A stretch of 64,000 bases of DNA from Patescibacteria group bacterium (GTDB lineage: Bacteria > Patescibacteriota > Minisyncoccia > Phycocordibacterales > Phycocordibacteraceae). A model generated the notes under the pieces. It worked only from the letters and a program-made list of their open reading frames with translations, ran no database searches and was not told the DNA's origin. The DNA lies in NCBI GenBank assembly GCA_040390125.1, contig JAZJYZ010000001.1, positions 668,210 through 732,209 of the forward strand. The letters run 5' to 3'. This document shows positions 2,981 to 63,337 of the stretch, in pieces (position 1 is the first letter of the stretch; every line of letters starts with the position of its first letter). Made by a program: the position numbers and the translations under genes.

Positions 2981-3040
2981 CTTCTAGGTGCTAGTTTAAA
3001 TTTCTGAAAGCTAGAAGCTAACAGCTAGCACCTAGAACCT
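2969..3040. repeat. Heptamer-periodic ctag-type, roughly palindromic intergenic element between convergent genes
   Basis: Left arm aggttctag/cttctag/gtgctag, centre tttaaatttctgaaag, right arm ctagaag/ctaacag/ctagcac/ctagaacc (reverse-complement 7-mers). The same design recurs in more than 12 other intergenic gaps in this window. Confidence 0.8.
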
Positions 3041-17664: not shown

Positions 17665-17868
17665 GGAAGAAACGCAAAACTATTCCTGTTTCGTTCCTCC
17701 TAAAACCTGTCTCGCTTGCTCGACAACGGTTTTTGCCGCAAAACGGCACCGGAAGAAACGCAAAACTATTCCTGTTTCGTTCCTCCTAAAACCTGTCTCG
17801 CTTGCTCGACAACGGTTTTTGCCGCAAAACGGCACCGGAAGAAACGCAAAACTATTTGCGTTTCTTCC
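17665..17868. repeat. 86-bp tandem direct repeat, 2 full copies plus a partial third ending in a perfect hairpin
   Basis: Unit ggaagaaacgcaaaactattcctgtttcgttcctcctaaaacctgtctcgcttgctcgacaacggtttttgccgcaaaacggcacc at 17665 and 17751. Third copy 17837-17868 is ggaagaaacgcaaa-acta-tttgcgtttcttcc (14-bp perfect stem). A degenerate copy precedes at about 17600-17664. Confidence 0.9.
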
Positions 17869-21378: not shown

Positions 21379-22317
21379 ATGAAAAAAGAAATCGCTATAG
21401 TGGGATTGGGAAAAATGGGTAGCGCAATGGCTCGCCGGATGATGGAGAAAGGTTGGAAGGTTGTTGGCCTTGACCGCTCTTTGGAAACTCTTGAGACAAT
21501 GAAAGCCGAAGGAGTTGTAACGGTTTCTTCGTACAGCGAAATGGCAGCAGCTCTTACCGCCCCGAGAATCGTCTGGCTCTTTTTGCCTCCTCAGAAAAAC
21601 CTCGAAGAGGAACGCATCGTCGATCAAGAACTTTTTAATCCGGACGGGATCGTAAGTACTCTTGTAGCGGAGGACATTGTTATTGACGGCGGAAATTCCT
21701 TTTTCAAAGAAGCTGCACCGCGTGCTGAAAAACTCAAAGCGAAAGGTATTAATTTCATCGATGCAGGAACCTCAGGAGGACCTGCGGGTGCACGTAGCGG
21801 TGCATGCCTCATGATTGGAGGTGAAAGAAAAACTTTTGAATCAATAGAAGAACTCTTCAAAGATTTTGCACTCGAAGATGGTTATCGTTTCTTTGACGGT
21901 CATGGTGCAGGGCACTTTGTGAAAATGGTTCATAACGGCATTGAGTACGGAATGATGCAAACAATTGCCGAAGGGTTCGAATTACTAAAGAAGTCCGACT
22001 ACGCTCTTGATCTAGAGCGGGTTACCGACATCTATAATAATGGCTCCGTCATAGAATCCAGGCTCGTGGGATGGCTCGGTAACGCCTTCAAAGAAAGTAG
22101 CCAAAATTTGGATGGTATTTCATCAACCGTCCAGCATAATGGTGAAGGCGAATGGACAATACAAGCGGCAAAAGAAGCGGGAGTTGATGTGCACACGATT
22201 GAACACGCACTCCAGTTTCGTCTTGAATCAGAAAAGAACCCACGCTTCGCAGGTAAGGTGCTATCGGCAATGCGAAAGCAATTTGGTGGTCACAACGTTA
22301 AAGAAAAGCCCGAATAG
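21379..22317 (+). CDS. gnd: 6-phosphogluconate dehydrogenase (decarboxylating), short ~310-aa form
   Basis: IAIVGLGKMGSAMARRM Rossmann motif, DGGNSFF and VKMVHNGIEYGMMQ. The ATG at 21379 is preferred over the TTG at 21370. Confidence 0.88.
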   Translation: MKKEIAIVGLGKMGSAMARRMMEKGWKVVGLDRSLETLETMKAEGVVTVSSYSEMAAALTAPRIVWLFLPPQKNLEEERIVDQELFNPDGIVSTLVAEDIVIDGGNSFFKEAAPRAEKLKAKGINFIDAGTSGGPAGARSGACLMIGGERKTFESIEELFKDFALEDGYRFFDGHGAGHFVKMVHNGIEYGMMQTIAEGFELLKKSDYALDLERVTDIYNNGSVIESRLVGWLGNAFKESSQNLDGISSTVQHNGEGEWTIQAAKEAGVDVHTIEHALQFRLESEKNPRFAGKVLSAMRKQFGGHNVKEKPE

Positions 22318-22327
22318 TCGGGCTTTT
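22306..22327 (+). terminator. Intrinsic terminator of zwf-gnd overlapping the gnd stop codon
   Basis: agcccga-ata-gtcgggc hairpin followed by tttt. Confidence 0.55.
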
Positions 22328-23037: not shown

Positions 23038-24978
23038 ATGAAGAACGGTAATAAAGAAAAGTCACCGAGTGGCTCCTCTGAGCCCTCAAAGAAAGGGGCT
23101 CGTATTAAGACAGTCATAAGCATCACCCGAAGCGGAAAGGGGTTTTTACTTGACCCTGACGGAGATGCGGTTGTCTATCGTGAAAACCTAGGCAGTGCCC
23201 TTTCGGGCGACGTAGTGGAAGCACTCGTGACAATGCGTGGGAAGGTAAAGGTGGGTCGTGTACTTAAAGTCCTAGAGCGAAAAACTAGTTCGTTCGTCGG
23301 AGAAATAGTAAGAACACCCCAAGGAATGATGCTCCGCCCCGACGACGGACGGGTCTATTTTGACTTCAAAATCACTGGGAGCTCTGGTGCACCAGAAGGA
23401 CACAAGGCAATTATTGATGTTCTGGACTGGAATACCCCAACCCCCGAAGGAAAGATTAGGAGCATCATTGGACGTGCCGGTGAACATGAGACGGAAATTC
23501 ATGCCATCATCCTTTCAAAAGGATTCGAGGGCGACTTCCCTGCCGATGTCCTCAAGGAGGCTGGGGATCTCTACAAAGATGCATGGAATGAGGACGAAAT
23601 AAAAACCCGCCGTGACTTCCGTGACACCCTTACTTTCACCATTGACCCTGACACTGCGAAAGACTTCGATGATGCCATTTCATACAAAGCGCTTCCTGAT
23701 GGAAGTATGGAAGTAGGTATTCACATTGCAGACGTCACGCACTTCGTTCGTCCAGGAACATCACTTGATCGTGAAGCATACAAGCGTGCAACGAGCGTAT
23801 ACATGGTTGATAGAACGGTGCCCATGCTTCCGCCACAACTTTCAGAAGATTTGTGTAGTTTGAAACCCAATGTTGATAGGCTCGCATTCTCCGCAGTGTT
23901 TACCGTGAAAGACAATCAGGTAAAAGAGCGTTGGTTTGGACGCACTATCATTCGCTCACAAAAACGCTTCACTTACGATGATGCCGATGTCTCTCTTAAA
24001 GATGCAACAGCACCACTCCACTCAGAAATAAACGTCCTATGGAAATTCGCTGAAACTTTGAAGCGAGAACGGAGAGAAAAAGGTGCCATTATGTTTGGCT
24101 CTGAAGAAATAAAGCCTGTTTTGGATGAGAGCGGAAAAGTAACTGGTTTCAAAAAAACTCTCTACACAGAATCACATCAACTCATTGAAGAGTTAATGCT
24201 CCTCGCTAACCGTGAAGTGGCTACATTTGTTTCTGAGAAATTAGGCAAGAAAAATCGCCTCTTCGTGTACCGCATCCACGACGTGCCGAACGCAGAAAAA
24301 CTAGACGAGCTTGCGGTGTTTTTGCGTGCCATAGGGCACCAACTCACGCTCAACAAAAAAGGAGCTGTCGGGCAAGATATCAACAAACTTCTGAAAGACA
24401 TCGAGGGGGAACCTGAAGAGCGTCTCATTAAAACAGCAACCATCCGCTCAATGGCAAAGGCGGTTTACACAACAAAGAACATCGGGCACTACGGCCTTGC
24501 GTTCGAGAATTACGCCCACTTCACCTCCCCAATACGCCGTTATCCCGACACGATGGTACACCGAACACTCGCCACCGTCCTTTCAGGAAAGAAAGTTACC
24601 GATGACCCGGAAGAGCAAGAGCGCCGAGCAATTCATGCATCTGAGCGAGAAGTAGCGGCCGCTGAAGCCGAACGTGCGAGCGTGAAAATGAAGCAAGTTG
24701 AGTACTTTGCAAACTTCATCGGAGCCGAGCGAGACGGCGTTGTTTCCGGCGTTACCGAGTGGGGTATCTACGTGAGCGACAACGAAACCTCTGCCGACGG
24801 CATGGTGCGTCTCACCTCTCTCACCGACGACACGTACGAATTCGATAAGAAGAAATACGCAGCCATAGGCCAGCGAACAAAGCGAGTAATTCGCCTCGGT
24901 GACCCCGTTCGCTTCATCGTTGAACGTGCCGACCTCGAGGAGCGTACTCTCGATTTCAAGCTCATCCAGCCCGACTAA
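23038..24978 (+). CDS. rnr: Ribonuclease R (RNB-family 3'-5' exoribonuclease)
   Basis: RNB catalytic region FTIDPDTAKDFDDAIS...HIADVTHFV, a cold-shock-like N-terminus and a C-terminal S1 domain. Confidence 0.9.
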   Translation: MKNGNKEKSPSGSSEPSKKGARIKTVISITRSGKGFLLDPDGDAVVYRENLGSALSGDVVEALVTMRGKVKVGRVLKVLERKTSSFVGEIVRTPQGMMLRPDDGRVYFDFKITGSSGAPEGHKAIIDVLDWNTPTPEGKIRSIIGRAGEHETEIHAIILSKGFEGDFPADVLKEAGDLYKDAWNEDEIKTRRDFRDTLTFTIDPDTAKDFDDAISYKALPDGSMEVGIHIADVTHFVRPGTSLDREAYKRATSVYMVDRTVPMLPPQLSEDLCSLKPNVDRLAFSAVFTVKDNQVKERWFGRTIIRSQKRFTYDDADVSLKDATAPLHSEINVLWKFAETLKRERREKGAIMFGSEEIKPVLDESGKVTGFKKTLYTESHQLIEELMLLANREVATFVSEKLGKKNRLFVYRIHDVPNAEKLDELAVFLRAIGHQLTLNKKGAVGQDINKLLKDIEGEPEERLIKTATIRSMAKAVYTTKNIGHYGLAFENYAHFTSPIRRYPDTMVHRTLATVLSGKKVTDDPEEQERRAIHASEREVAAAEAERASVKMKQVEYFANFIGAERDGVVSGVTEWGIYVSDNETSADGMVRLTSLTDDTYEFDKKKYAAIGQRTKRVIRLGDPVRFIVERADLEERTLDFKLIQPD

Positions 24979-25002
24979 TACCTTCATACAGAGATTTTCT
25001 CC

Positions 25003-25026
25003 TGTGCAACCTCCGGAGGTTGCACA
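25003..25026. repeat. 24-bp perfect palindrome tgtgcaacctccggaggttgcaca (TGTGC-N14-GCACA family) at the rnr 3' end
   Basis: Exact reverse-complement symmetry. A second identical copy is at 40229. The related copies 31836 and 40451 share the ends and the central ccgg. Confidence 0.85.
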
Positions 25027-25110
25027 GCTACTTACGAAGTGCATCTTGGCAAATTTTTCTGCATCAGAATCCAACGACCAAATTCTTTTTGATTCTGCTC
25101 TTTCAATTTC

Positions 25111-25536
25111 TTATATCCGAGCTTTATATAGAAATCCACTGCACCAAAGACTGGCTTCCAAATGCATACTCCTCACCTTTTGTGCACCTGCAACCTGCTC
25201 AAGGTGCCCTACGGTCCGTGCGCCTAATCCCTGTCCCTGGTATGCGGGCATGACATAGAGCGTTTGCAATATACCGCATCCGAAAAATCTCTTCTTATAA
25301 GAACCAGTAGCGACAATGTCATTTCCTTCAGTAAGAACAACAGAGTGGCGAGTGCGTGAAAGCACCGCAAGATGTTTAGGGGTAATGTGCGCAACTAAAT
25401 GATCAATAACTCGTTTCGGGTAATGTTTTATATTGACCTCAATAAGAGTTTTTTTGATTAGGTCAGAAACTTCTTCAGCGTCAGATTCATGAAATCGACG
25501 CAGAGAAATTGTTGGTTTTTCTAATTTTTTTTCCAT
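25111..25536 (-). CDS. GNAT-family N-acetyltransferase
   Basis: Acetyl-CoA motif QGQGLGARTVGHLEQVA. The ATG at 25536 (MEKKLEKP) is preferred. Its leader is duplicated in front of the next gene. Confidence 0.75.
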   Translation of the reverse strand: MEKKLEKPTISLRRFHESDAEEVSDLIKKTLIEVNIKHYPKRVIDHLVAHITPKHLAVLSRTRHSVVLTEGNDIVATGSYKKRFFGCGILQTLYVMPAYQGQGLGARTVGHLEQVAGAQKVRSMHLEASLWCSGFLYKARI

Positions 25537-25584
25537 AGAGAAAAAGCTAAATTTTTTAAATACTATCTGCCAAACTCTACACAA

Positions 25585-25794
25585 CTAATAACAAGATCTG
25601 TGTTCCTGACATCGGTACTGCACCTCATCCCAGGTGCGAGGAAACGAGTAAATAGCAGGTTGCCTGCAATTACCGAAATTACACGTATTCCCTTCCGGAC
25701 TGTATGGTCCACCAATCTTAAATAAGGCTTCGAAGTCTGCATCTCGTTTTCTCTGCATCCGGCGAGCGAATGCGTTTTCTTTATTTTCTCCCAT
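25585..25794 (-). CDS. Small Cys-rich hypothetical protein (69 aa)
   Basis: MGENKENAF... contains CNFGNC and CQEHRSC. Preceded by the same ~27-nt leader as the GNAT gene. Confidence 0.4.
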   Translation of the reverse strand: MGENKENAFARRMQRKRDADFEALFKIGGPYSPEGNTCNFGNCRQPAIYSFPRTWDEVQYRCQEHRSCY

Positions 25795-25851
25795 AGCAAA
25801 AAGCTTAAATTTTTTAAGAGAGCTATTCATATATATAAAAAGTTGAGCGCA

Positions 25852-26169
25852 CTACAGCGCCCAACGATTCACCAAAACAAAAAGCGTTTGAATATCAAGA
25901 CCGCTGTTCCCAAGAACGATGCGGGACAGGCTTCCAGCTTTTATGCTTTGGACAGGTCGGATCATGTTGTCTTCTTTTGACTGAACGAGTTCTGGTAAGA
26001 GAGACTCGTACCCACGCACACGTGCAGGCTTTTTCAGATGAATTATAGGCTTCAGGCATAGGAAAAATTTAGTTTTCATAAGGAGAGCTATTCGGGAATA
26101 TGAAAATGTGTCAGCGCATACTGCGCCAAAATACGGAACTACATACAAAAAATTAATTGGAAAGCTCAT
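25852..26169 (-). CDS. Hypothetical protein (105 aa from ATG 26169; the GTG-extended ORF reaches 26232)
   Basis: ORF-track only, no motif. The ATG start avoids overlap with the upstream ORF. Confidence 0.35.
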   Translation of the reverse strand: MSFPINFLYVVPYFGAVCADTFSYSRIALLMKTKFFLCLKPIIHLKKPARVRGYESLLPELVQSKEDNMIRPVQSIKAGSLSRIVLGNSGLDIQTLFVLVNRWAL

Positions 26170-26176
26170 ATTTTTC

Positions 26177-26392
26177 TCAAGTACGATATATGATTCTTCG
26201 AAATCGTGGTATTTCTTCCCTGTGTACTTCACCTAGAGAGCAACCACAGTCTCTGCAATATCCTTTGAATACCTTTCTACCGTTTTTAGCTGTTTCTACT
26301 TCACGGTACACTCCGTGATGTTTTTTCTGCTCTGCTTCAAGACCAGAACATAGTGGAGCACTGACTGACTCAGGACTGAATAGTGATGACAT
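26177..26392 (-). CDS. Small Cys-rich hypothetical protein (71 aa); C-terminal part of a TAA-split ORF
   Basis: CRDCGC motif. An in-frame 43-aa ORF (26402..26533) ends at a TAA four codons upstream of this gene's ATG. Confidence 0.4.
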   Translation of the reverse strand: MSSLFSPESVSAPLCSGLEAEQKKHHGVYREVETAKNGRKVFKGYCRDCGCSLGEVHREEIPRFRRIIYRT

Positions 26393-26401
26393 ACAAATGA
26401 A

Positions 26402-26533
26402 TTACCAACCAAACCTGTGCTCGGCTTTGCACTCAGGTTTTATAATTCGGAAACCCCACTCATCAAACTCGCTACATATGCAACGCTCGCGAGGCTTCAG
26501 TGGCTCCCATATTGCTATAGATTCGATAGACAT
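26402..26533 (-). CDS. 43-aa Cys-containing ORF in frame with 26177..26392, separated from it by a single TAA
   Basis: MSIESIAIWEPLKPRERCICSEFDEWGFRIIKPECKAEHRFGW then stop. Below the ORF-track cutoff. Either an independent micro-gene or the N-terminal part of an interrupted gene. Confidence 0.3.
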   Translation of the reverse strand: MSIESIAIWEPLKPRERCICSEFDEWGFRIIKPECKAEHRFGW

Positions 26534-26593
26534 AGAGAAAAAACATTAATTGCATAAGGGATTCTTCTTGCTTTGTTTGGTAAGTTCTTAAAC

Positions 26594-26869
26594 TTACCTT
26601 CTTTCGTGCGTAGGGCAATCCCAATGAGGTTTACGTACACCTTTGACTGTTTTACAGAAGCAGGGCTGTCCAATGCCAGCGTCTCGATTTACTTTTGGGA
26701 TTCGAATCGTTCCACCAAAGAGCATTCTCGTCATGTAGCGTAAATTGAATTCTGCCACTTCAGGAGCGATAGCTCGCAAGCGAGCGAGATCCGCTTGAAT
26801 TCTTCGACGTAAGATGTCGGATTCGTTGCTACGCCAATTATATTTGGGATCTGTTGGTTCAAATGCCAT
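26594..26869 (-). CDS. Hypothetical protein (91 aa) with C-terminal CxC...HWDCPTH motif
   Basis: ATG start. Possible zinc-binding motif CFCKTVKGVRKPHWDCPTHERR. Confidence 0.4.
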   Translation of the reverse strand: MAFEPTDPKYNWRSNESDILRRRIQADLARLRAIAPEVAEFNLRYMTRMLFGGTIRIPKVNRDAGIGQPCFCKTVKGVRKPHWDCPTHERR

Positions 26870-27063
26870 AGGAAAAAATTAGATTGGTGGTAAAAGAGAC
26901 TATTACTGTTATGTGAAAATTTCTGGGCTTATGCCCAGAAATAAAAACCGAAGAAATAGAAAGCGACAGCACTGATGATGCCAGTTGGCTTGAGGTCAAT
27001 GGCTATCGCTTTAGTCATTACTACGCATGGTATCAAAAATACCCTACGTGTCAATTAACAAAG

Positions 27064-27258
27064 CTAGCGTAGATGAGGAGGTATTTCCTTAGCCTCTCTA
27101 TTTCGGATAACTGACAATGCTCTTCTTCGTGCGCCCGCTATCGACTCTCCACCACGTCTAGTAATTCTTACAATGTGCTTTGCTCGTGCTTTACGTCTTT
27201 GATCTGGGGTTAAATCTGCTGGTACTCCTCCCAATGAAACTCCTTCAAAGTTTGCCAT
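27064..27258 (-). CDS. Small basic hypothetical protein (64 aa)
   Basis: ATG ORF MANFEGVSLGG..., Arg-rich (RRKARAKHIVRITRRGG). No recognised family. Confidence 0.35.
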   Translation of the reverse strand: MANFEGVSLGGVPADLTPDQRRKARAKHIVRITRRGGESIAGARRRALSVIRNREAKEIPPHLR

Positions 27259-27319
27259 ATGAATATTCGATTATCAGTAACCTAAGCAGTATAAAGAAAA
27301 ACCATCTTCAACACAAAGT

Positions 27320-28594
27320 TCAAAGTGTTCCCCTATCACGACGTGCCTGAAGAATGCGATCGGCACCTAAAACGAATGCGGAAACACGGTACGGTACGCC
27401 ATGCTCGGTAGCAATTCTCGACACATTCCCCCACGCCTCATGCATATACTCTTTCAGTAAATCATTCACTTCGTCACGCTTCATTGCACGACCAGTTTTT
27501 CCTTGCATCCATTCAAAGTACGAAACAGTCACACCACCAGCGTTTGCAAGCACATCAGGGATAACAGGGATACTTCGCTTTTCAAGTTCCACATCCCCCT
27601 CTGCAGTCGTAGGGCCATTCGCAAGTTCAAGAACGACTTTTGCTTTCACACCCTCTGCCACCTCTTTTGTGAGAACACCGTCAAGCGCCGCTGGGACAAG
27701 AATATCGGCGTCCATTACGAGTACGGCGTTCGGCTCACCTAATGTCACACCCTCCGCTCGAAGCTTGCTCTCATCGCATACCGAGCCCTTGCAATACACA
27801 TCCTGCACCGACTGTCGTTGGCTCTTAATGTGAATGAACACATTAGGGTCAAGACCCTTCTCACTCATTACTGCACCTTTTGAGTCGGCAATGCCGACGA
27901 TTTTGTATCCACGCTCGTGAAGCAGGCTCGCAATGGTAGCTCCTGCGTTTCCAAAGCCATGAATGGCAACACGAAGACCTTTAGGATTCATCTGCTTTTC
28001 TTTGAGATACGCTTCAAGGGTAAATACTCCACCCATGGCAGTTGCGGTGTCTCTCCCTGGCAAACCCCCAAGAGAAATAGGTTTCCCCGTGAATGTAGCG
28101 GGAGCACTTTTGCCAATAATTTTTTCATACTCATCGAGCATCACTCCCATGATTTCACCGTTCGTATACACATCAGGTGCTGGAACGTCGGTATCGGGCC
28201 CTAGATGCTCATGCATTGAACGAACAAACGCACGAGACACTCCATGAATCTCCTCTTTGGAGGCTGATTTTGGATTAAACATCACACCTCCCTTTCCTCC
28301 ACCAAGTGGAATATCAACAACAGCACATTTAATTGCCATCATTGCTGCTAAAGACTTCACTTCATCCAAGTCAGCATCTGGATGAAAGCGAATACCGCCC
28401 TTGTAGGGGCCACGTGCGTTTGAAAACTGAACACGGTACGCAGGGAGTTCAACTGCAACTCCCCCTACTGTAACTGAAAGCTTTTTTTCAATGACACGGT
28501 CAGGCTCCAAAAGCACCTTTGCTTCCTCGGCAGAGAGCTTGAGAAGCTCCGTAATTCGTTTTACATGCGAGCGATATTGATCGAATGCGTTCAT
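27320..28594 (-). CDS. gdhA: Glutamate dehydrogenase (Glu/Leu/Phe/Val dehydrogenase family)
   Basis: KGGIRFHPDADLDEVKSLAAMMAIKCAVVDIPLGGGKGG catalytic region and GFGNAGATIASLLHERG Rossmann motif. Confidence 0.93.
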   Translation of the reverse strand: MNAFDQYRSHVKRITELLKLSAEEAKVLLEPDRVIEKKLSVTVGGVAVELPAYRVQFSNARGPYKGGIRFHPDADLDEVKSLAAMMAIKCAVVDIPLGGGKGGVMFNPKSASKEEIHGVSRAFVRSMHEHLGPDTDVPAPDVYTNGEIMGVMLDEYEKIIGKSAPATFTGKPISLGGLPGRDTATAMGGVFTLEAYLKEKQMNPKGLRVAIHGFGNAGATIASLLHERGYKIVGIADSKGAVMSEKGLDPNVFIHIKSQRQSVQDVYCKGSVCDESKLRAEGVTLGEPNAVLVMDADILVPAALDGVLTKEVAEGVKAKVVLELANGPTTAEGDVELEKRSIPVIPDVLANAGGVTVSYFEWMQGKTGRAMKRDEVNDLLKEYMHEAWGNVSRIATEHGVPYRVSAFVLGADRILQARRDRGTL

Positions 28595-28597
28595 GAT

Positions 28598-28897
28598 TTA
28601 AAAGAATATAAAACGCTTTTTTGCTTTCTCACGTGGTTTATTAAGCGATGTATGACGGAAAAGAAAATCCTCCGTAGAATTGTTAGTTTCAGAAACGAGC
28701 CTAAGGCGCTGCTCAAGGAGGAGTGCAAGTGGATTTTCTTTGGAAATCCTCAATATGGGGATTAATCTTCTTTCAATTTCTCCCAAACTAAGGGCCCGCA
28801 GATTCTCGAACAGCCTTCTATCATGGTTTGCCGAGCCATATATCGTATCTTTCTGGCTTTCAAGTGAAAGTCGTACGCTCTCAGGACTCATGACCAT
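28598..28897 (-). CDS. Hypothetical protein (99 aa), ends 4 nt upstream of gdhA
   Basis: ATG start MVMSPES. No motif. Confidence 0.4.
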   Translation of the reverse strand: MVMSPESVRLSLESQKDTIYGSANHDRRLFENLRALSLGEIERRLIPILRISKENPLALLLEQRLRLVSETNNSTEDFLFRHTSLNKPREKAKKRFIFF

Positions 28898-28922: not shown

Positions 28923-31100
28923 CTATTTCGCAACTTTCACAGCCTCTTCAAGTTTGACTGAAAGCACCTTCGAAACACCGTCGTTGCCCATGGTGATGCC
29001 ATAAAGAATTCCTGCCCGAGACATCGTTTCTCGATTGTGAGTGATGATGGCGAGCTGAGATTTTTTTGAGAGTGCCTCAACCATGTCGCCGTACCTGCGA
29101 CTATTTGACTCATCAAGTGCGGCATCGGTTTCATCAAGCATAAGAAACGGTGGTGGATTCACAGACGACATTGCAAAAATAAGCGCAATTGATGTCAATG
29201 TACGCTCCCCGCCTGAGAGCATGACCAAACTCTTTACACGCTTTCGAGGAATAGAGAGCGAGATATCAATTCCTGACGAGGTTTCTTCAGTTTCACGCTC
29301 CGCATCTCCGCCTTCCTCATCAAAAACATTCTCTGCTTTCCGCCGTACCGGCTCCTCAATACGTACCAATGACGCCGAACCACCGTCAAACATTAAAGCA
29401 AAGAACTTAGTGAACTCAGTGTTAATGGCATCAATACCTTCCGTAAAACGCACACTGAGTTCCGCTTCGAGGTTTTGTATTAATCCTTTTAAGGATACCG
29501 ACGCTGTTTCAAGATCAGCAAGTTCACGCTCTAGAAACGCTTCACGCTCGCTTGCCTCTTTATATTCTTTCATCACGTCAGCACTGGCACTCGTGCCCAT
29601 TTCCTCAAGGCGTATCTTGGTTTTCTCAAGCTCTCGCTTCTCTTGTGCTTGTGCGTCCCGAGACACAGATTCAATGACTAGAGAAGAATACGAAAGAGCT
29701 TCCCTACCAATAAGTGTTCCGGCCTCTAGCAAGTCACGTTCAAACTCAGCTTTTTCTAAACCAAGTCGCCCCATTTCACCTTCAAGCATATTCAAACGGT
29801 GCCTAACATCACGCTCGGCAGTGGCGAGACTGAAAAGAGCTCGTTCTTTTTCACGTTCATTCGTTCTCGCAGTATCAAGCTCGGTTCTGATGGTATCCAG
29901 CGATTCTGAAAGCTCTGTTTCTTTTTGAGCAAACTCTTTCTCGGCGTTCATCGCAAGCTCTCGTTCACGCTTGAGATGTGCCACATCCTCCGAGTCGTTT
30001 GCAGTAGTCGCAGTCAGCACTTTGAATCTGGCAAAGTACTCACGGAAAAAGGAAAGTACTTCCGCTATAGGACTATTAGAAAATCCATTGAGTGCCCTCT
30101 CTCCTTCCTCAACTAATTGCGAAACCTCCGAGAGAGGCAGGCTCGCATTACTCATCGTCCTTTCCAGAGCTTCAATCTGGCCTTCAAATCGTGACGCTTT
30201 TCTGAGTGCCTCTGCACGTGAACTCCTCGCACTATCAAGAGCACTTGATATTTCAAGAATGGCACTTCCACGTTTGTCTTCATCAGACTGTGCTAGAGCC
30301 TGCTTTGCCTCCGCTACTTTTCCAGCGATTTCCGCAAGCTCCTGACGCCTTTCTAAAAGTTCACTCTCAAATTGAGAGCTTGCCGCCCCCAGATAGGATT
30401 CTTCACGTTTGAAATATGTCTGAAAACGGAGGGTGGCAGATGCACGTAACACCTCAGCTTTCTCGACTTTCTCAACCTGCTTTTTTAGAAAGCGCAAATG
30501 CGGAGCAATCTCACGACGAAGCGCCTCCACTTGGCGCATATTTTCTTCTGTCTTCTGGAGCTTACGTAGGGACTCTTCGAGTTTATATTGATATGCCTTG
30601 AGACCAAGCGCATCTTCGAGCATTTCCCTGCGTTCACGTGGCGGAGCAGAGAGTATCTTGTCGGCTTCGCCTTGAGAGATGATGTGATGCCCGGTAGCCC
30701 CAATGTTTGCTCCTGCCAGTAATTCAAGAATGTCTTTCAGACGCACCTGGCTTCCGTTCAAGCGATACTCGTTGGTGCCATCCCTATTTACCACCCGCTC
30801 AATAACCACTTCATCAAAATCAAGATTTAAGAAACGTGACGTGTTGTCAAAGGCAATAGCCACCGATGCACGATTAGCTCGGGGTGTTGTTGCAGAACCA
30901 TTCCAAATAAGATCTTCACCACGCTTTCCACGCATCGATTTCATTGACTGTTCGCCCAATACGAAACGCACCGCTTCTGCGACGTTTGATTTACCTGAGC
31001 CGTTCGGGCCCACAATGGCAACTACTGACGTATTGAAATCAAAGCTAGTCTTCTTAGCAAAAGACTTAAAGCCCGCAATGTCGAGGCGAGTGAGATGCAT
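28923..31100 (-). CDS. smc: SMC-family ATPase, unusually short (725 aa)
   Basis: N-terminal Walker A FKSFAKKTSFDF...VGPNGSGKSNVAEAVRFVLGEQS. C-terminal signature/Walker B LSGGERTLTSIALIFA...LMLDETDAALD. Long coiled-coil in between. Confidence 0.8.
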   Translation of the reverse strand: MHLTRLDIAGFKSFAKKTSFDFNTSVVAIVGPNGSGKSNVAEAVRFVLGEQSMKSMRGKRGEDLIWNGSATTPRANRASVAIAFDNTSRFLNLDFDEVVIERVVNRDGTNEYRLNGSQVRLKDILELLAGANIGATGHHIISQGEADKILSAPPRERREMLEDALGLKAYQYKLEESLRKLQKTEENMRQVEALRREIAPHLRFLKKQVEKVEKAEVLRASATLRFQTYFKREESYLGAASSQFESELLERRQELAEIAGKVAEAKQALAQSDEDKRGSAILEISSALDSARSSRAEALRKASRFEGQIEALERTMSNASLPLSEVSQLVEEGERALNGFSNSPIAEVLSFFREYFARFKVLTATTANDSEDVAHLKRERELAMNAEKEFAQKETELSESLDTIRTELDTARTNEREKERALFSLATAERDVRHRLNMLEGEMGRLGLEKAEFERDLLEAGTLIGREALSYSSLVIESVSRDAQAQEKRELEKTKIRLEEMGTSASADVMKEYKEASEREAFLERELADLETASVSLKGLIQNLEAELSVRFTEGIDAINTEFTKFFALMFDGGSASLVRIEEPVRRKAENVFDEEGGDAERETEETSSGIDISLSIPRKRVKSLVMLSGGERTLTSIALIFAMSSVNPPPFLMLDETDAALDESNSRRYGDMVEALSKKSQLAIITHNRETMSRAGILYGITMGNDGVSKVLSVKLEEAVKVAK

Positions 31101-31112
31101 GCAAGCATTATA

Positions 31113-31148
31113 GAATAGCTTTCAGCTTTCAGGTGTGAGCTTTCAGGG
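31113..31148. repeat. agctttcag-type heptamer element upstream of smc
   Basis: atagctttcagctttcaggtgtgagctttcaggg, built from the same 7-mers as the elements at 35118, 50175 and 63259. Confidence 0.6.
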
Positions 31149-33901: not shown

Positions 33902-34128
33902 GCGTTCGAAGATACCAGAAAACCCCTAAAACAGCAAGGTTTTGAGTATAAAGACTTCCCTGAAAACTGAAACCTGACAGCTAAAAGCTGGCCTATTTCG
34001 CACACTTGAGTGCAGTCAAAAATATCTCAGATGCGAGGCACGAGCGAGCACCGTACCGAGCCATATCGAGCATATGGTGAAGGGAGGAGCGGAGTGAGGA
34101 ACGATGCAGATGAAGATTTTAGACGCAC

Positions 34129-35117: not shown

Positions 35118-35220
35118 AGCTTCTAGCTTTCAGCCTATAGCTTATAGGGAGGAAAGAAAGGTTTTTTGGGATATTGGATGTGTAAAGCTGGAAGCTGACA
35201 GCTGGAAGCTGTAAGCTACT
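35118..35220. repeat. Composite agcttctag / agctggaag heptamer element filling the divergent rnhB-dnaE gap
   Basis: agcttctagctttcagcctatagcttataggg ... aaagctggaagctgacagctggaagctgtaagctact. The central AT-rich 35 nt (ttttttgggatattggatgtgt) probably carries the divergent promoters. Confidence 0.7.
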
Positions 35221-50174: not shown

Positions 50175-50218
50175 CTAAAAAGCTGAAAGCTAACAGCTGA
50201 AACCTGAAAGCTAAAAAG
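50175..50218. repeat. agctgaa-type heptamer element abutting the gyrB stop
   Basis: ctaaaaagctgaaagctaacagctgaaacctgaaagctaaaaag. Confidence 0.7.
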
Positions 50219-63258: not shown

Positions 63259-63337
63259 AAAAGCTGTCAGGTGCCAGCTGTCAGCTTTTAGCTTTTAAAT
63301 TCAAAGCTAGAACCTGGAAGCTGAAAGCTAGAAGCTT
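63259..63337. repeat. agctgtcag / agctggaag heptamer palindromic element between the release factor and rpsB
   Basis: aaaagctgtcaggtgccagctgtcagcttttagc - ttttaaattcaa - agctagaacctggaagctgaaagctagaagctttc. Confidence 0.75.

Follow-up and report, generated by a model that had tools for sequence, protein, structure and literature searches.

A variable islet of very small genes, several of them for putative zinc-binding microproteins, between gdh and rnr in a Patescibacteria genome

The DNA analysed here is a stretch of 64,000 nucleotides (hereafter the window; positions refer to it unless a related locus is named) from a Patescibacteria metagenome-assembled genome (MAG; contig of 748,944 bp, locus tags V4449). 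At positions 25585-27258 it contains a cluster of very small open reading frames (ORFs), bordered on one side by a dehydrogenase gene (gdh) and on the other by a GNAT acetyltransferase gene, beyond which lies the convergent RNase R gene (rnr; Table 1). A preliminary description, made from the sequence alone, had reported six co-oriented ORFs between housekeeping genes. All six were recovered, every one on the minus strand, and the nature of the flanks was confirmed. The count of six was too low, as a further small gene for a peptide of 29 amino acids (aa), here called P, had been overlooked. We propose with moderate confidence that the cluster is a lineage-restricted and strain-variable islet of at least seven tiny, separately promoted genes, that is, an array of zinc-knuckle microproteins with rapid turnover. 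Four or five of the genes (ORF1, ORF3, ORF5, ORF4 and ORF2alt; 43-91 aa) could each supply three or four Cys/His ligands for one zinc ion. P, perhaps together with a long ORF derived from an element named H2, may encode hydrophobic peptides.

Table 1. Coordinates of the islet features and of the two flanking genes in the window.
Feature	Position	Strand	Length	Remarks
GNAT acetyltransferase gene	25111..25536	-	141 aa	flank of the islet
ORF1	25585..25794	-	69 aa	V4449_03995; family A1; N-terminal helix, then C38-x4-C43...C62-x2-H65-x2-C68; first listed as 25585-25830, 81 aa
H2/ORF2 intrinsic terminator	25842..25865	-		gttgggcgc-TGTAGT-gcgctcaac + TTTTT; kept in relatives
105-aa ORF	25852..26169	-	105 aa from ATG; 126 aa from GTG at 26232	H2-type hydrophobic ORF; second of the six listed; V4449_04000 is its last 75 aa, from 26079
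ORF2alt	25895..26059	-	54 aa	basic; CTC-x21-CPKH (B1-like); other frame within the 105-aa ORF
ORF3	26177..26392	-	71 aa	basic; family B4; C15...C46-x2-C49-x-C51
ORF4	26402..26533	-	43 aa	CIC-x14-C-x3-H; isoelectric point 5.7; orphan
ORF5	26594..26869	-	91 aa	V4449_04005; predicted helical N-terminal part, C-terminal CFC-x12-CPTH knuckle
Invariant block after P	26899..26941 (feature)	-	21 nt	TTTTCACATAACAGTAATAGT; directly after the P terminator
P intrinsic terminator	26920-26941	-		tttctgggc-ATAA-gcccagaaa + T run; stop codon in the loop
P ORF	26929..27018	-	29 aa	hydrophobic; MTKAIAIDLKPTGIISAVAFYFFGFYFWA; begins 8 nt past the -10 box
P promoter	27027..27054	-		sigma-70-type; TTGACA, 16-nt spacer, TG-n-TACCAT; directly after ORF6
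ORF6	27064..27258	-	64 aa	V4449_04010; Arg-rich; isoelectric point 11.9; no Cys
Glu/Leu/Phe/Val dehydrogenase gene (gdh)	27320-28594			flank of the islet

The ORF cluster is denser than chance. On the minus strand, ORFs of at least 40 aa that begin with ATG cover 1383 of the 1674 nucleotides (nt; 83%), compared with a mean of 306 nt (approximately 18%; standard deviation 201) and a maximum of 1050 nt in 2000 dinucleotide-preserving shuffles. Coverage of the plus strand (282 nt) is at the chance level. Four genes are called here by the Prokaryotic Genome Annotation Pipeline (PGAP), namely ORF1 in its 69-aa form, a 75-aa part of the 105-aa frame, ORF5 and ORF6; ORF3 and ORF4 lack PGAP annotation. 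The Cys motifs ascribed to several of the ORFs in the preliminary description are all present, but the 105-aa ORF has no such motif and ORF6 has no cysteine at all, and the motif-bearing ORF near 25852 is the overlapping ORF2alt in another frame, which the earlier list omitted. Three ligand patterns are found across the islet: C-x4-C...C-x2-H, C-x-C...C-P-x-H and C...C-x2-C-x-C. Two Cys/His patterns were confined to the islet when all six frames of the window were searched. The predicted products are mostly basic, with isoelectric points of 9-12 for ORF2alt, ORF3, ORF5 and ORF6 and of 8.4 for ORF1; ORF4 is acidic. ORF1, ORF2alt, ORF3, ORF5 and ORF6 are hydrophilic and none of them has a signal-peptide-like N-terminus. 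The GC content of the islet (39-44%) shows a mild dip relative to the long genes of the window (approximately 47%). Neither tRNA nor tmRNA genes were found in the region, and Rfam gave nothing real at gathering or lax thresholds.

Related loci were collected by exact-protein look-ups, one GTDB scan and one metagenome scan. The eight loci obtained represent six other genomes, all of them Paceibacterota/Patescibacteria MAGs (L001 (= L010, L012), L003, L004/L005, L006 (= L009), L007, L008 and L011). The common gene order is SMC-like, (malic enzyme), gdh, islet, (AstE/AspA), (GNAT), RNase R, and this synteny holds in L001 and L003-L008, with L011 being consistent with it. The islet thus keeps the same position between gdh and rnr in the eight related loci, and its content is different in each genome. 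Indeed, no two genomes carry the same combination of small genes. The backbones of L001 and L003 share approximately 91% identity with the window as far as the first cassette ATG (26869); beyond this point their sequences are unrelated to the window until the ORF1/GNAT side is reached. The GNAT gene is present in the window, L001 and L003, and none was seen between the islet and rnr in L004, L006, L007 and L011. A gene of the AstE/AspA family (succinylglutamate desuccinylase/aspartoacylase-like proteins) lies within the islet of L001 (11118-12206 of that locus) and L011 (7002-8090) and is missing from the window. As the presence of the AstE/AspA and GNAT genes differs among the loci, even the enzyme genes of the interval are variable.

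The small genes of the window and its relatives were sorted into families. Those designated A comprise A1 (the ORF1 type), A2 (60-63 aa) and A3 (68-71 aa), and those designated B comprise B1 (37-44 aa, C-x-C-x12-13-C-P-x-H), B2 (41-46 aa, six Cys), B3 (63-65 aa) and B4 (the ORF3 type). The remaining islet gene types are a 48-75-aa type, the hydrophobic P and H2, and ORF6. In B1, the C-x-C and the third Cys are invariant and the His varies by one or two positions; in general, the ligands of the A and B families are invariant in the relatives. Ratios of nonsynonymous to synonymous differences (pN/pS) in the relatives are 0.18-0.62 for B1, 0.18-0.34 for B3 and 0.06-0.52 for A2 and A3. For B2 they are mostly 0.09-0.65, with one near-identical pair at 0.95 that rests on only five substitutions. 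The families of the relatives are consequently under purifying selection, which indicates that this kind of gene is real even where the copy in the window is an orphan. Kinship of A1 and A2 is plausible from their profiles, which align across the C-x4-C-x2-P...FPR knuckle (hhalign probability 52%, E = 1.4e-4). Profile comparisons gave no support to superfamily links between A1 and A3, B4 and B3, or B1 and B3.

Three of the window genes, ORF1, ORF3 and ORF6, for which orthologues occur in six related Paceibacterota loci, evolve as proteins under purifying selection, and the ligands of ORF1 and ORF3 are invariant. The probable start of ORF1 is the ATG at 25794, as in PGAP and in the orthologues, rather than that of the 81-aa version. 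ORF1 is 60-66% identical to its five orthologues, in which C38, C43, C62, H65 and C68 are all kept. For A1, the ratio of nonsynonymous to synonymous substitution rates (dN/dS) is 0.15-0.25 in comparisons with the window allele and 0.04-0.14 in those between the other sequences. The family is rare: only 4 of the 185,579 species-representative genomes, all of them Paceibacterota/Patescibacteria, contain it, as do 4 clusters among 5.8 billion, and only three homologues of ORF1 were recovered in a large protein search. An AlphaFold2 model of ORF1, computed with the alignment, has a helix at residues 3-27 followed by a beta-hairpin (predicted local distance difference test score, pLDDT, 51). ORF3 has 71-aa orthologues in L004, L005 and L007 with 49% identity, all four Cys invariant and dN/dS of 0.31-0.41. 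A hidden Markov model (HMM) built only from the relatives matched ORF3 at E = 6e-22 among the 1468 stop-to-stop segments of the window. The large protein search gave no word-sharing candidate for ORF3, and in Pfam it had a sub-threshold match to the DUF5679 zinc ribbon (E = 0.002). ORF6 has orthologues in L001 and L002, with dN/dS of 0.12 against L001, and a homologue more than 90% identical adjoins gdh in another MAG. It is missing from L004, L006, L007 and L011, where other elements directly follow gdh. The suggestion that the ORFs might be spurious unless conserved outside this genome is therefore answered for these three, and at least half of the six ORFs are demonstrably real genes.

The remaining Cys-bearing ORFs of the window (ORF2alt, ORF5 and ORF4) share the CxC...C(P)xH pattern with the 37-44-aa B1 genes of the relatives. 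When a B1 HMM built only from relatives was run against the same 1468 segments, ORF2alt ranked first (E = 0.069), ORF5 fifth (E = 0.39) and ORF4 sixth (E = 0.49). Each match is weak alone, but with three pre-specified ORFs among the top six of 1468, chance is very unlikely. In addition, the CxC-x12-CPxH ligand spacing of ORF5 is exactly that of the B1 gene of L004, and DPTCPKHK of ORF2alt matches DPQCPKHK of the B1 genes in L004, L007 and L011. The AlphaFold2 model of ORF5, computed from the single sequence (pLDDT 57), has two helices and a beta-hairpin at the knuckle; both models, of ORF1 and ORF5, thus place a beta-hairpin at the ligand pairs after one or two helices. Searched against 1.84 billion representative sequences, ORF5 matched only itself and a repetitive junk translation (P0013), the B1 profile likewise recovered only ORF5 in the large protein search, and an exact look-up of ORF5 on other contigs returned nothing on record. 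ORF4 has no orthologue in any related locus, does not occur in the protein collection and is the least supported gene of the islet.

At ORF2 two frames are open. DNA alignment with five relatives revealed that the H2 element of the window carries an insertion of approximately 190 nt found only in this genome. Both ends of the 105-aa ORF match the 40-44-aa H2 ORF of these relatives, and its middle, which has no homologue, is the insertion. The insertion supplies its own start module and ORF2alt, and the H2 frame remains open across it. The stop codon of the 105-aa ORF sits in the loop of the H2 terminator, as in H2 itself, and in L006 this terminator has a compensatory change (GGGCG/CGCCC to GGACG/CGTCC). 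The codon score of the 105-aa ORF is good (+15 bits), but it arises where ORF2alt overlaps. As a coding-like +1 frame is shared by the B1, B2 and B3 genes of every genome, this score is attributed to a family-wide +1-frame artefact in Cys-rich genes. Both ORF2 frames may be used. As a side observation, the +1 frame of B2/B3 genes is open for 40-89 codons (L004 5528-5650, L006 5579-5848, L003 460-714, L011 6334-6474, in the coordinates of these loci), and a codon model derived from housekeeping genes rates it above the selected frame. This is a trap for gene callers on microproteins rich in Cys, His and Arg.

P is a 29-aa hydrophobic peptide or a structured RNA, and it is the most unusual single feature of the islet. 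Its promoter, the only promoter-like site in 24900-27400, fits the consensus at 10 of 12 positions in addition to the TG. The hexamers are kept in six loci, and the spacer and the stretch before the ATG vary. The P start looks leaderless. The ORF is present in the window, L001, L003, L004, L007 and L011, and L006 has a divergent 25-aa version; the terminator and the block following it are invariant in all seven loci, including divergent L006. From the ATG to approximately 20 nt beyond the terminator, the nucleotide identity between the window and L004, L007 and L011 is 97-99%, and over the whole block including the promoter it is 92-97%, whereas gdh of these three loci is only 74% identical to that of the window. 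P is thus far more conserved than the neighbouring housekeeping gene. The RNA of approximately 105 nt is predicted to form a long hairpin at its 5' end, then a U-rich linker and the terminator, with a minimum free energy of -38.9 kcal/mol (z = -5.7; none of 200 shuffles was as stable). All substitutions lie in loops or preserve the base pairs, and they are also synonymous or limited to codon 10 (K/R/N), so that coding and RNA constraint fit the pattern equally well. The L006 copy retains the 25-aa ORF and a 5' hairpin of different sequence. A covariance model of P found exactly one copy per locus; it did not detect H2 as a paralogue of P. The only match of P in Rfam, SNORA57, scored 21.6 bits, below the gathering score of 40, and in Pfam there was none.

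No gene start in the window is preceded by a Shine-Dalgarno sequence, and in most window genes a TAnnnT box lies 6-10 nt upstream of the start codon. This start context points to leaderless or near-leaderless mRNAs as the general rule here. Upstream of each islet ORF, 6-11 nt from the ATG, lies either a TAnnnT-like box or one of the shared start modules, in line with the general Shine-Dalgarno-free start context of the genome. The module CTAATTTTTTCCT-ATG precedes ORF5, and a version with one mismatch precedes ORF2alt; the two sites (ccaccaatctaattttttcctATG and CTAAATTTTTCCTATG, respectively) are the only ones of this kind in the 64 kb. The 5' module of the ORF5 type also opens the first cassette of L003, L004, L006, L007 and L011. 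ORF1 is preceded by another module, CTTAAAAAATTTAAGCTTTTTGCT-ATG, of which a 43-nt copy (77% identical) precedes the GNAT gene, and ORF6 has a GATAAT box 11 nt upstream of its ATG. The GNAT start was placed at 25536 and not at the TTG at 25584.

With respect to identity, the preliminary description was right in that the ORFs belong to no recognisable family. Scans of the window ORFs and of the families of the relatives against Pfam, NCBIfam, PHROGs and PADLOC gave no significant match to any described family, and what appeared below the thresholds was generic zinc-finger noise (DUF5679, RING, P-11, FdhE_C). Profile searches of the PDB with A1 and B1 yielded nothing. In the literature nothing specific was found on small Cys-rich proteins or on leaderless translation in Patescibacteria. 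The families are new and narrowly distributed, and the general kind, small putative zinc-binding proteins, is known.

The closest functional analogy is with the zinc-finger microproteins of a single domain from haloarchaea, among them HVO_2753 and HVO_0758 of Haloferax volcanii and Brz of Halobacterium, whose known roles are regulatory or adaptor-like and concern swarming, biofilm formation and bop transcription (PMC6562870, PMC10716476, PMC11241148, PMC2253796). Like the islet products, these proteins have approximately 40-90 aa, contain little beyond one or two Cys/His pairs and no enzymatic domain, are often basic and are encoded by separate small genes often missed by annotation. The Cys/His ORFs of the islet are of the corresponding size (43-91 aa) with no other domain found, and four ligands are available in ORF1 (C38, C43, C62, H65) and ORF3 (C15, C46, C49, C51). 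In contrast to the scattered archaeal genes, those of the islet are clustered at one hypervariable site, their zinc sites are predicted, they belong to the other domain of life and share no sequence similarity with the archaeal proteins, and their motifs are not paired C(P)XCG. No window ORF contains two CPxCG or CxxCG motifs, and membership in the haloarchaeal C(P)XCG family was accordingly rejected.

If the proposed reading is correct, each microprotein would fold round one Zn2+ into a knuckle/beta-hairpin module, and its basic surface would bind nucleic acid or a partner protein, making it a small accessory regulator or adaptor. The array would turn over by duplication, insertion, loss and replacement of cassettes consisting of a promoter and an ORF, with recombination probably taking place at the bracketing sequences, i.e., at one end the P block and the start module downstream of it, and at the other end the H2 terminator together with the A1-type start module. 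From the density on one strand, the selected Cys/His families, the fixed position, the variable content, the brackets and the single insertion, we infer a birth-and-death array. Several points weigh against this. Five of 14 purified predicted zinc-finger microproteins of Haloferax volcanii contained no zinc (PMC11241148). Confidence in both AlphaFold2 models is low. Searches of 5.8 billion clustered sequences and of 1.84 billion representatives yielded no homologue of ORF4 or ORF5, whose membership in B1 rests on E values of 0.4-0.5 and ligand spacing. ORF2alt overlaps another open frame, which is preferred by the public annotation. Finally, the Cys-rich frames gain no support from a codon model based on housekeeping genes, in which they score near or below zero. 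The selected families B2 and B3 score equally poorly, and the codon-usage comparison proposed in the preliminary description is therefore uninformative rather than negative.

The same rapid turnover, together with the toxin-like look of P, keeps a role in genetic conflict as the main competing explanation, although we regard it as unlikely. The islet would then be a toxin-antitoxin, abortive-infection, anti-phage or host-interaction hotspot, in which P and H2 act as type I-like membrane toxins and the zinc microproteins are sensors, antitoxins or effectors diversifying under an arms race. Genomes with 91% identity in the flanks have different genes in its place, the shared genes occur as deeply divergent alleles (dS between ORF1 and its L001 orthologue is 1.25, and the flanking gdh is 91% identical), and such loci typically contain small accessory genes that have promoter-like sequences of their own. 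Type I toxin genes (TisB, Ibs, Fst) encode small hydrophobic peptides on highly structured mRNAs, and P resembles them as a 29-aa single-helix hydrophobic peptide on a short folded transcript with its own strong promoter and terminator. P differs from them in that no antisense promoter or antitoxin RNA is evident on the opposite strand (the scan covered sigma-70 consensus sites only), there is no sequence match, and its nucleotide ultraconservation is above the usual. A1, moreover, shows strong purifying rather than diversifying selection across four genomes (dN/dS 0.04-0.14). A phage, toxin/antitoxin or defence connection had been suggested in the preliminary description, but PADLOC, PHROGs, phage records and IMG/VR provided no direct evidence of it: PADLOC gave only a chance-level match of ORF3 to PtuB (E = 0.027, 12 bits), PHROGs nothing significant, tblastn against 50,697 phage records no match for ORF1, ORF5 or ORF6, and IMG/VR contigs no relative of A1. 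No integrase, phage gene, nuclease, ATPase or other effector or partner enzyme occurs in any related locus and the flanks are housekeeping genes in all of them, so that both a prophage remnant and a known anti-phage defence system were rejected. What fits a conflict-type role is only the strain-to-strain turnover, and that indirectly. A more speculative variant, to which we assign a low probability, is an integrase-free cassette-exchange locus, in which the ultraconserved P and the H2/A1 anchors serve as recombination and expression platforms, the swapped genes act in phage/host conflict and P is a dual RNA/membrane peptide that controls or guards the array. The islet does resemble integron or defence-hotspot arrays in having short co-oriented ORFs of variable presence and order at a fixed position between conserved brackets. 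It is unlike an integron array, and was rejected as such, because the gene maps contain no integrase, repeated attC-like inverted repeats are lacking, the cassettes have their own promoter-like start modules, and the products have 30-90 aa.

Other explanations concern the nature of the ORFs rather than their role. Only slightly harder to believe than a conflict locus is that the islet is partly spurious, i.e., that ORF1, ORF3, ORF6 and P are the only genes, and ORF4, ORF5, ORF2alt and the 105-aa ORF are chance ORFs or decaying pseudogenes in a fast-evolving spacer. The lack of homologues of ORF4 and ORF5, B1 HMM E values of only 0.07-0.5, the two mutually exclusive frames at ORF2 and the codon scores near or below zero would all be expected in that case. 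The coverage of 83% on one strand was never reached in the shuffles, however, ORF5 and ORF2alt start at a module that precedes proven cassette genes in relatives, the ranking of three pre-specified ORFs and the ligand spacing shared by ORF5 and the L004 B1 gene argue for genuine coding, and poor codon scores are equally found in B2 and B3, which are clearly under selection. A further proposal, which we consider improbable, makes P a leader-peptide attenuator of a single regulated operon, in which the terminator would be melted as the U-rich P is translated up to the stop codon in its loop, so that transcription could run on into the zinc cassettes in the manner of pyrBI. The stop codon is in the terminator loop in all copies of P and H2, a U-rich tract lies 5' of the hairpin, the invariant block runs past the terminator and nucleotide conservation this extreme points to constraints on RNA and on coding that overlap. 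Folding predicts no alternative antiterminator, though, the downstream cassettes carry -10-like boxes of their own at a leaderless distance, and nothing connects the downstream genes with the supply of nucleotides or aromatic amino acids. The stop-in-loop arrangement is also found at ordinary genes of the window, the 6-phosphogluconate dehydrogenase-like gene (22306-22325, plus strand) and the TrmD gene (17845-17860, minus strand), and looks like a habit of genome compaction. Precursors of ribosomally synthesized and post-translationally modified peptides (RiPPs) or bacteriocins, with the hydrophobic peptides as immunity or export factors, are a very improbable alternative. Tandem, strain-variable, small Cys-rich ORFs with small hydrophobic peptides adjoining would suit a RiPP cluster, but no related locus has a radical-SAM, Lan-type, cyclodehydratase, protease or ABC-exporter gene, the only neighbours of the islet being gdh, SMC-like, GNAT, AstE/AspA and RNase R genes. 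There is no leader/core organisation, and the long, basic, hydrophilic products carry sets of ligands of the kind usual in zinc sites; a RiPP/bacteriocin cluster was thus rejected. Hardly credible, finally, is the idea that the B1 genes are extra zinc-dependent paralogues of small ribosomal proteins such as bL36. They share with zinc-ribbon ribosomal proteins (bL36 and others with zinc-regulated paralogues) the size (37-44 aa), the strong positive charge, a single Cys3His or Cys4 site and a PKHK-like C-terminus (C-P-K-H-K; bL36 ends in C...PKHKQRQG). Yet there is no detectable homology: hhalign of B1 against bL36 gave a probability of 1% over only five aligned columns, Ribosomal_L36 of Pfam was not matched even at E <= 1, and there was no PDB match. 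Unlike ribosomal genes, the B1 genes are present or absent between close relatives, and several unrelated families lie side by side. Homology to ordinary ribosomal or housekeeping proteins, raised in the preliminary description as a possible simple explanation, was not found, and bL36 identity was rejected.

Patescibacteria have tiny genomes in which a large proportion of the genes is without known function. The islet illustrates that a partly annotated stretch may hold a dense set of real microprotein genes, with one of the four PGAP calls being in a doubtful frame. As it is reshuffled between genomes that are approximately 91% identical in the flanks, the islet provides a small comparable locus for the birth, duplication and loss of microprotein genes. 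Clusters of orphan small ORFs are common in such genomes, and the interest of the finding is for this reason moderate.

Some further features were observed around the islet. A perfect 26-nt palindrome (CTGTGCAACCTCC/GGAGGTTGCACAG) at 25002-25027, between the convergent RNase R and GNAT genes, is kept in L001 and L003 and is probably a bidirectional terminator. On the opposite side, the spacer of 329 nt between the SMC-like gene and gdh contains an orphan 99-aa ORF (28598-28897, minus strand). The same spacer holds a malic-enzyme gene in L004, L007 and L011 and has only 29 nt in L001, and it is thus a second variable spot adjoining the islet. No remnant of a malic-enzyme pseudogene was detected in the spacer of the window. 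The SMC-like protein (28923-31100, minus strand) has only 725 aa (726-727 aa in relatives); canonical bacterial SMC is far longer, approximately 1,200 aa. Tandem repeats of the form AGCTNNN with a 7-nt period (e.g., AGCTGGAAGCTGACAGCTGGAAGCTGTAAGCT) were matched 19 times in the window, compared with 0.11 expected. They lie at 3009-3033, 31117-31141, 33972-33989, 35118-35142, 35186-35217, 50181-50212 and 63262-63336, all of them intergenic and most just 5' of the -10-like boxes of housekeeping genes (SMC-like, RNase HII/dnaE and others), and may represent an upstream promoter element or a regulator binding array.

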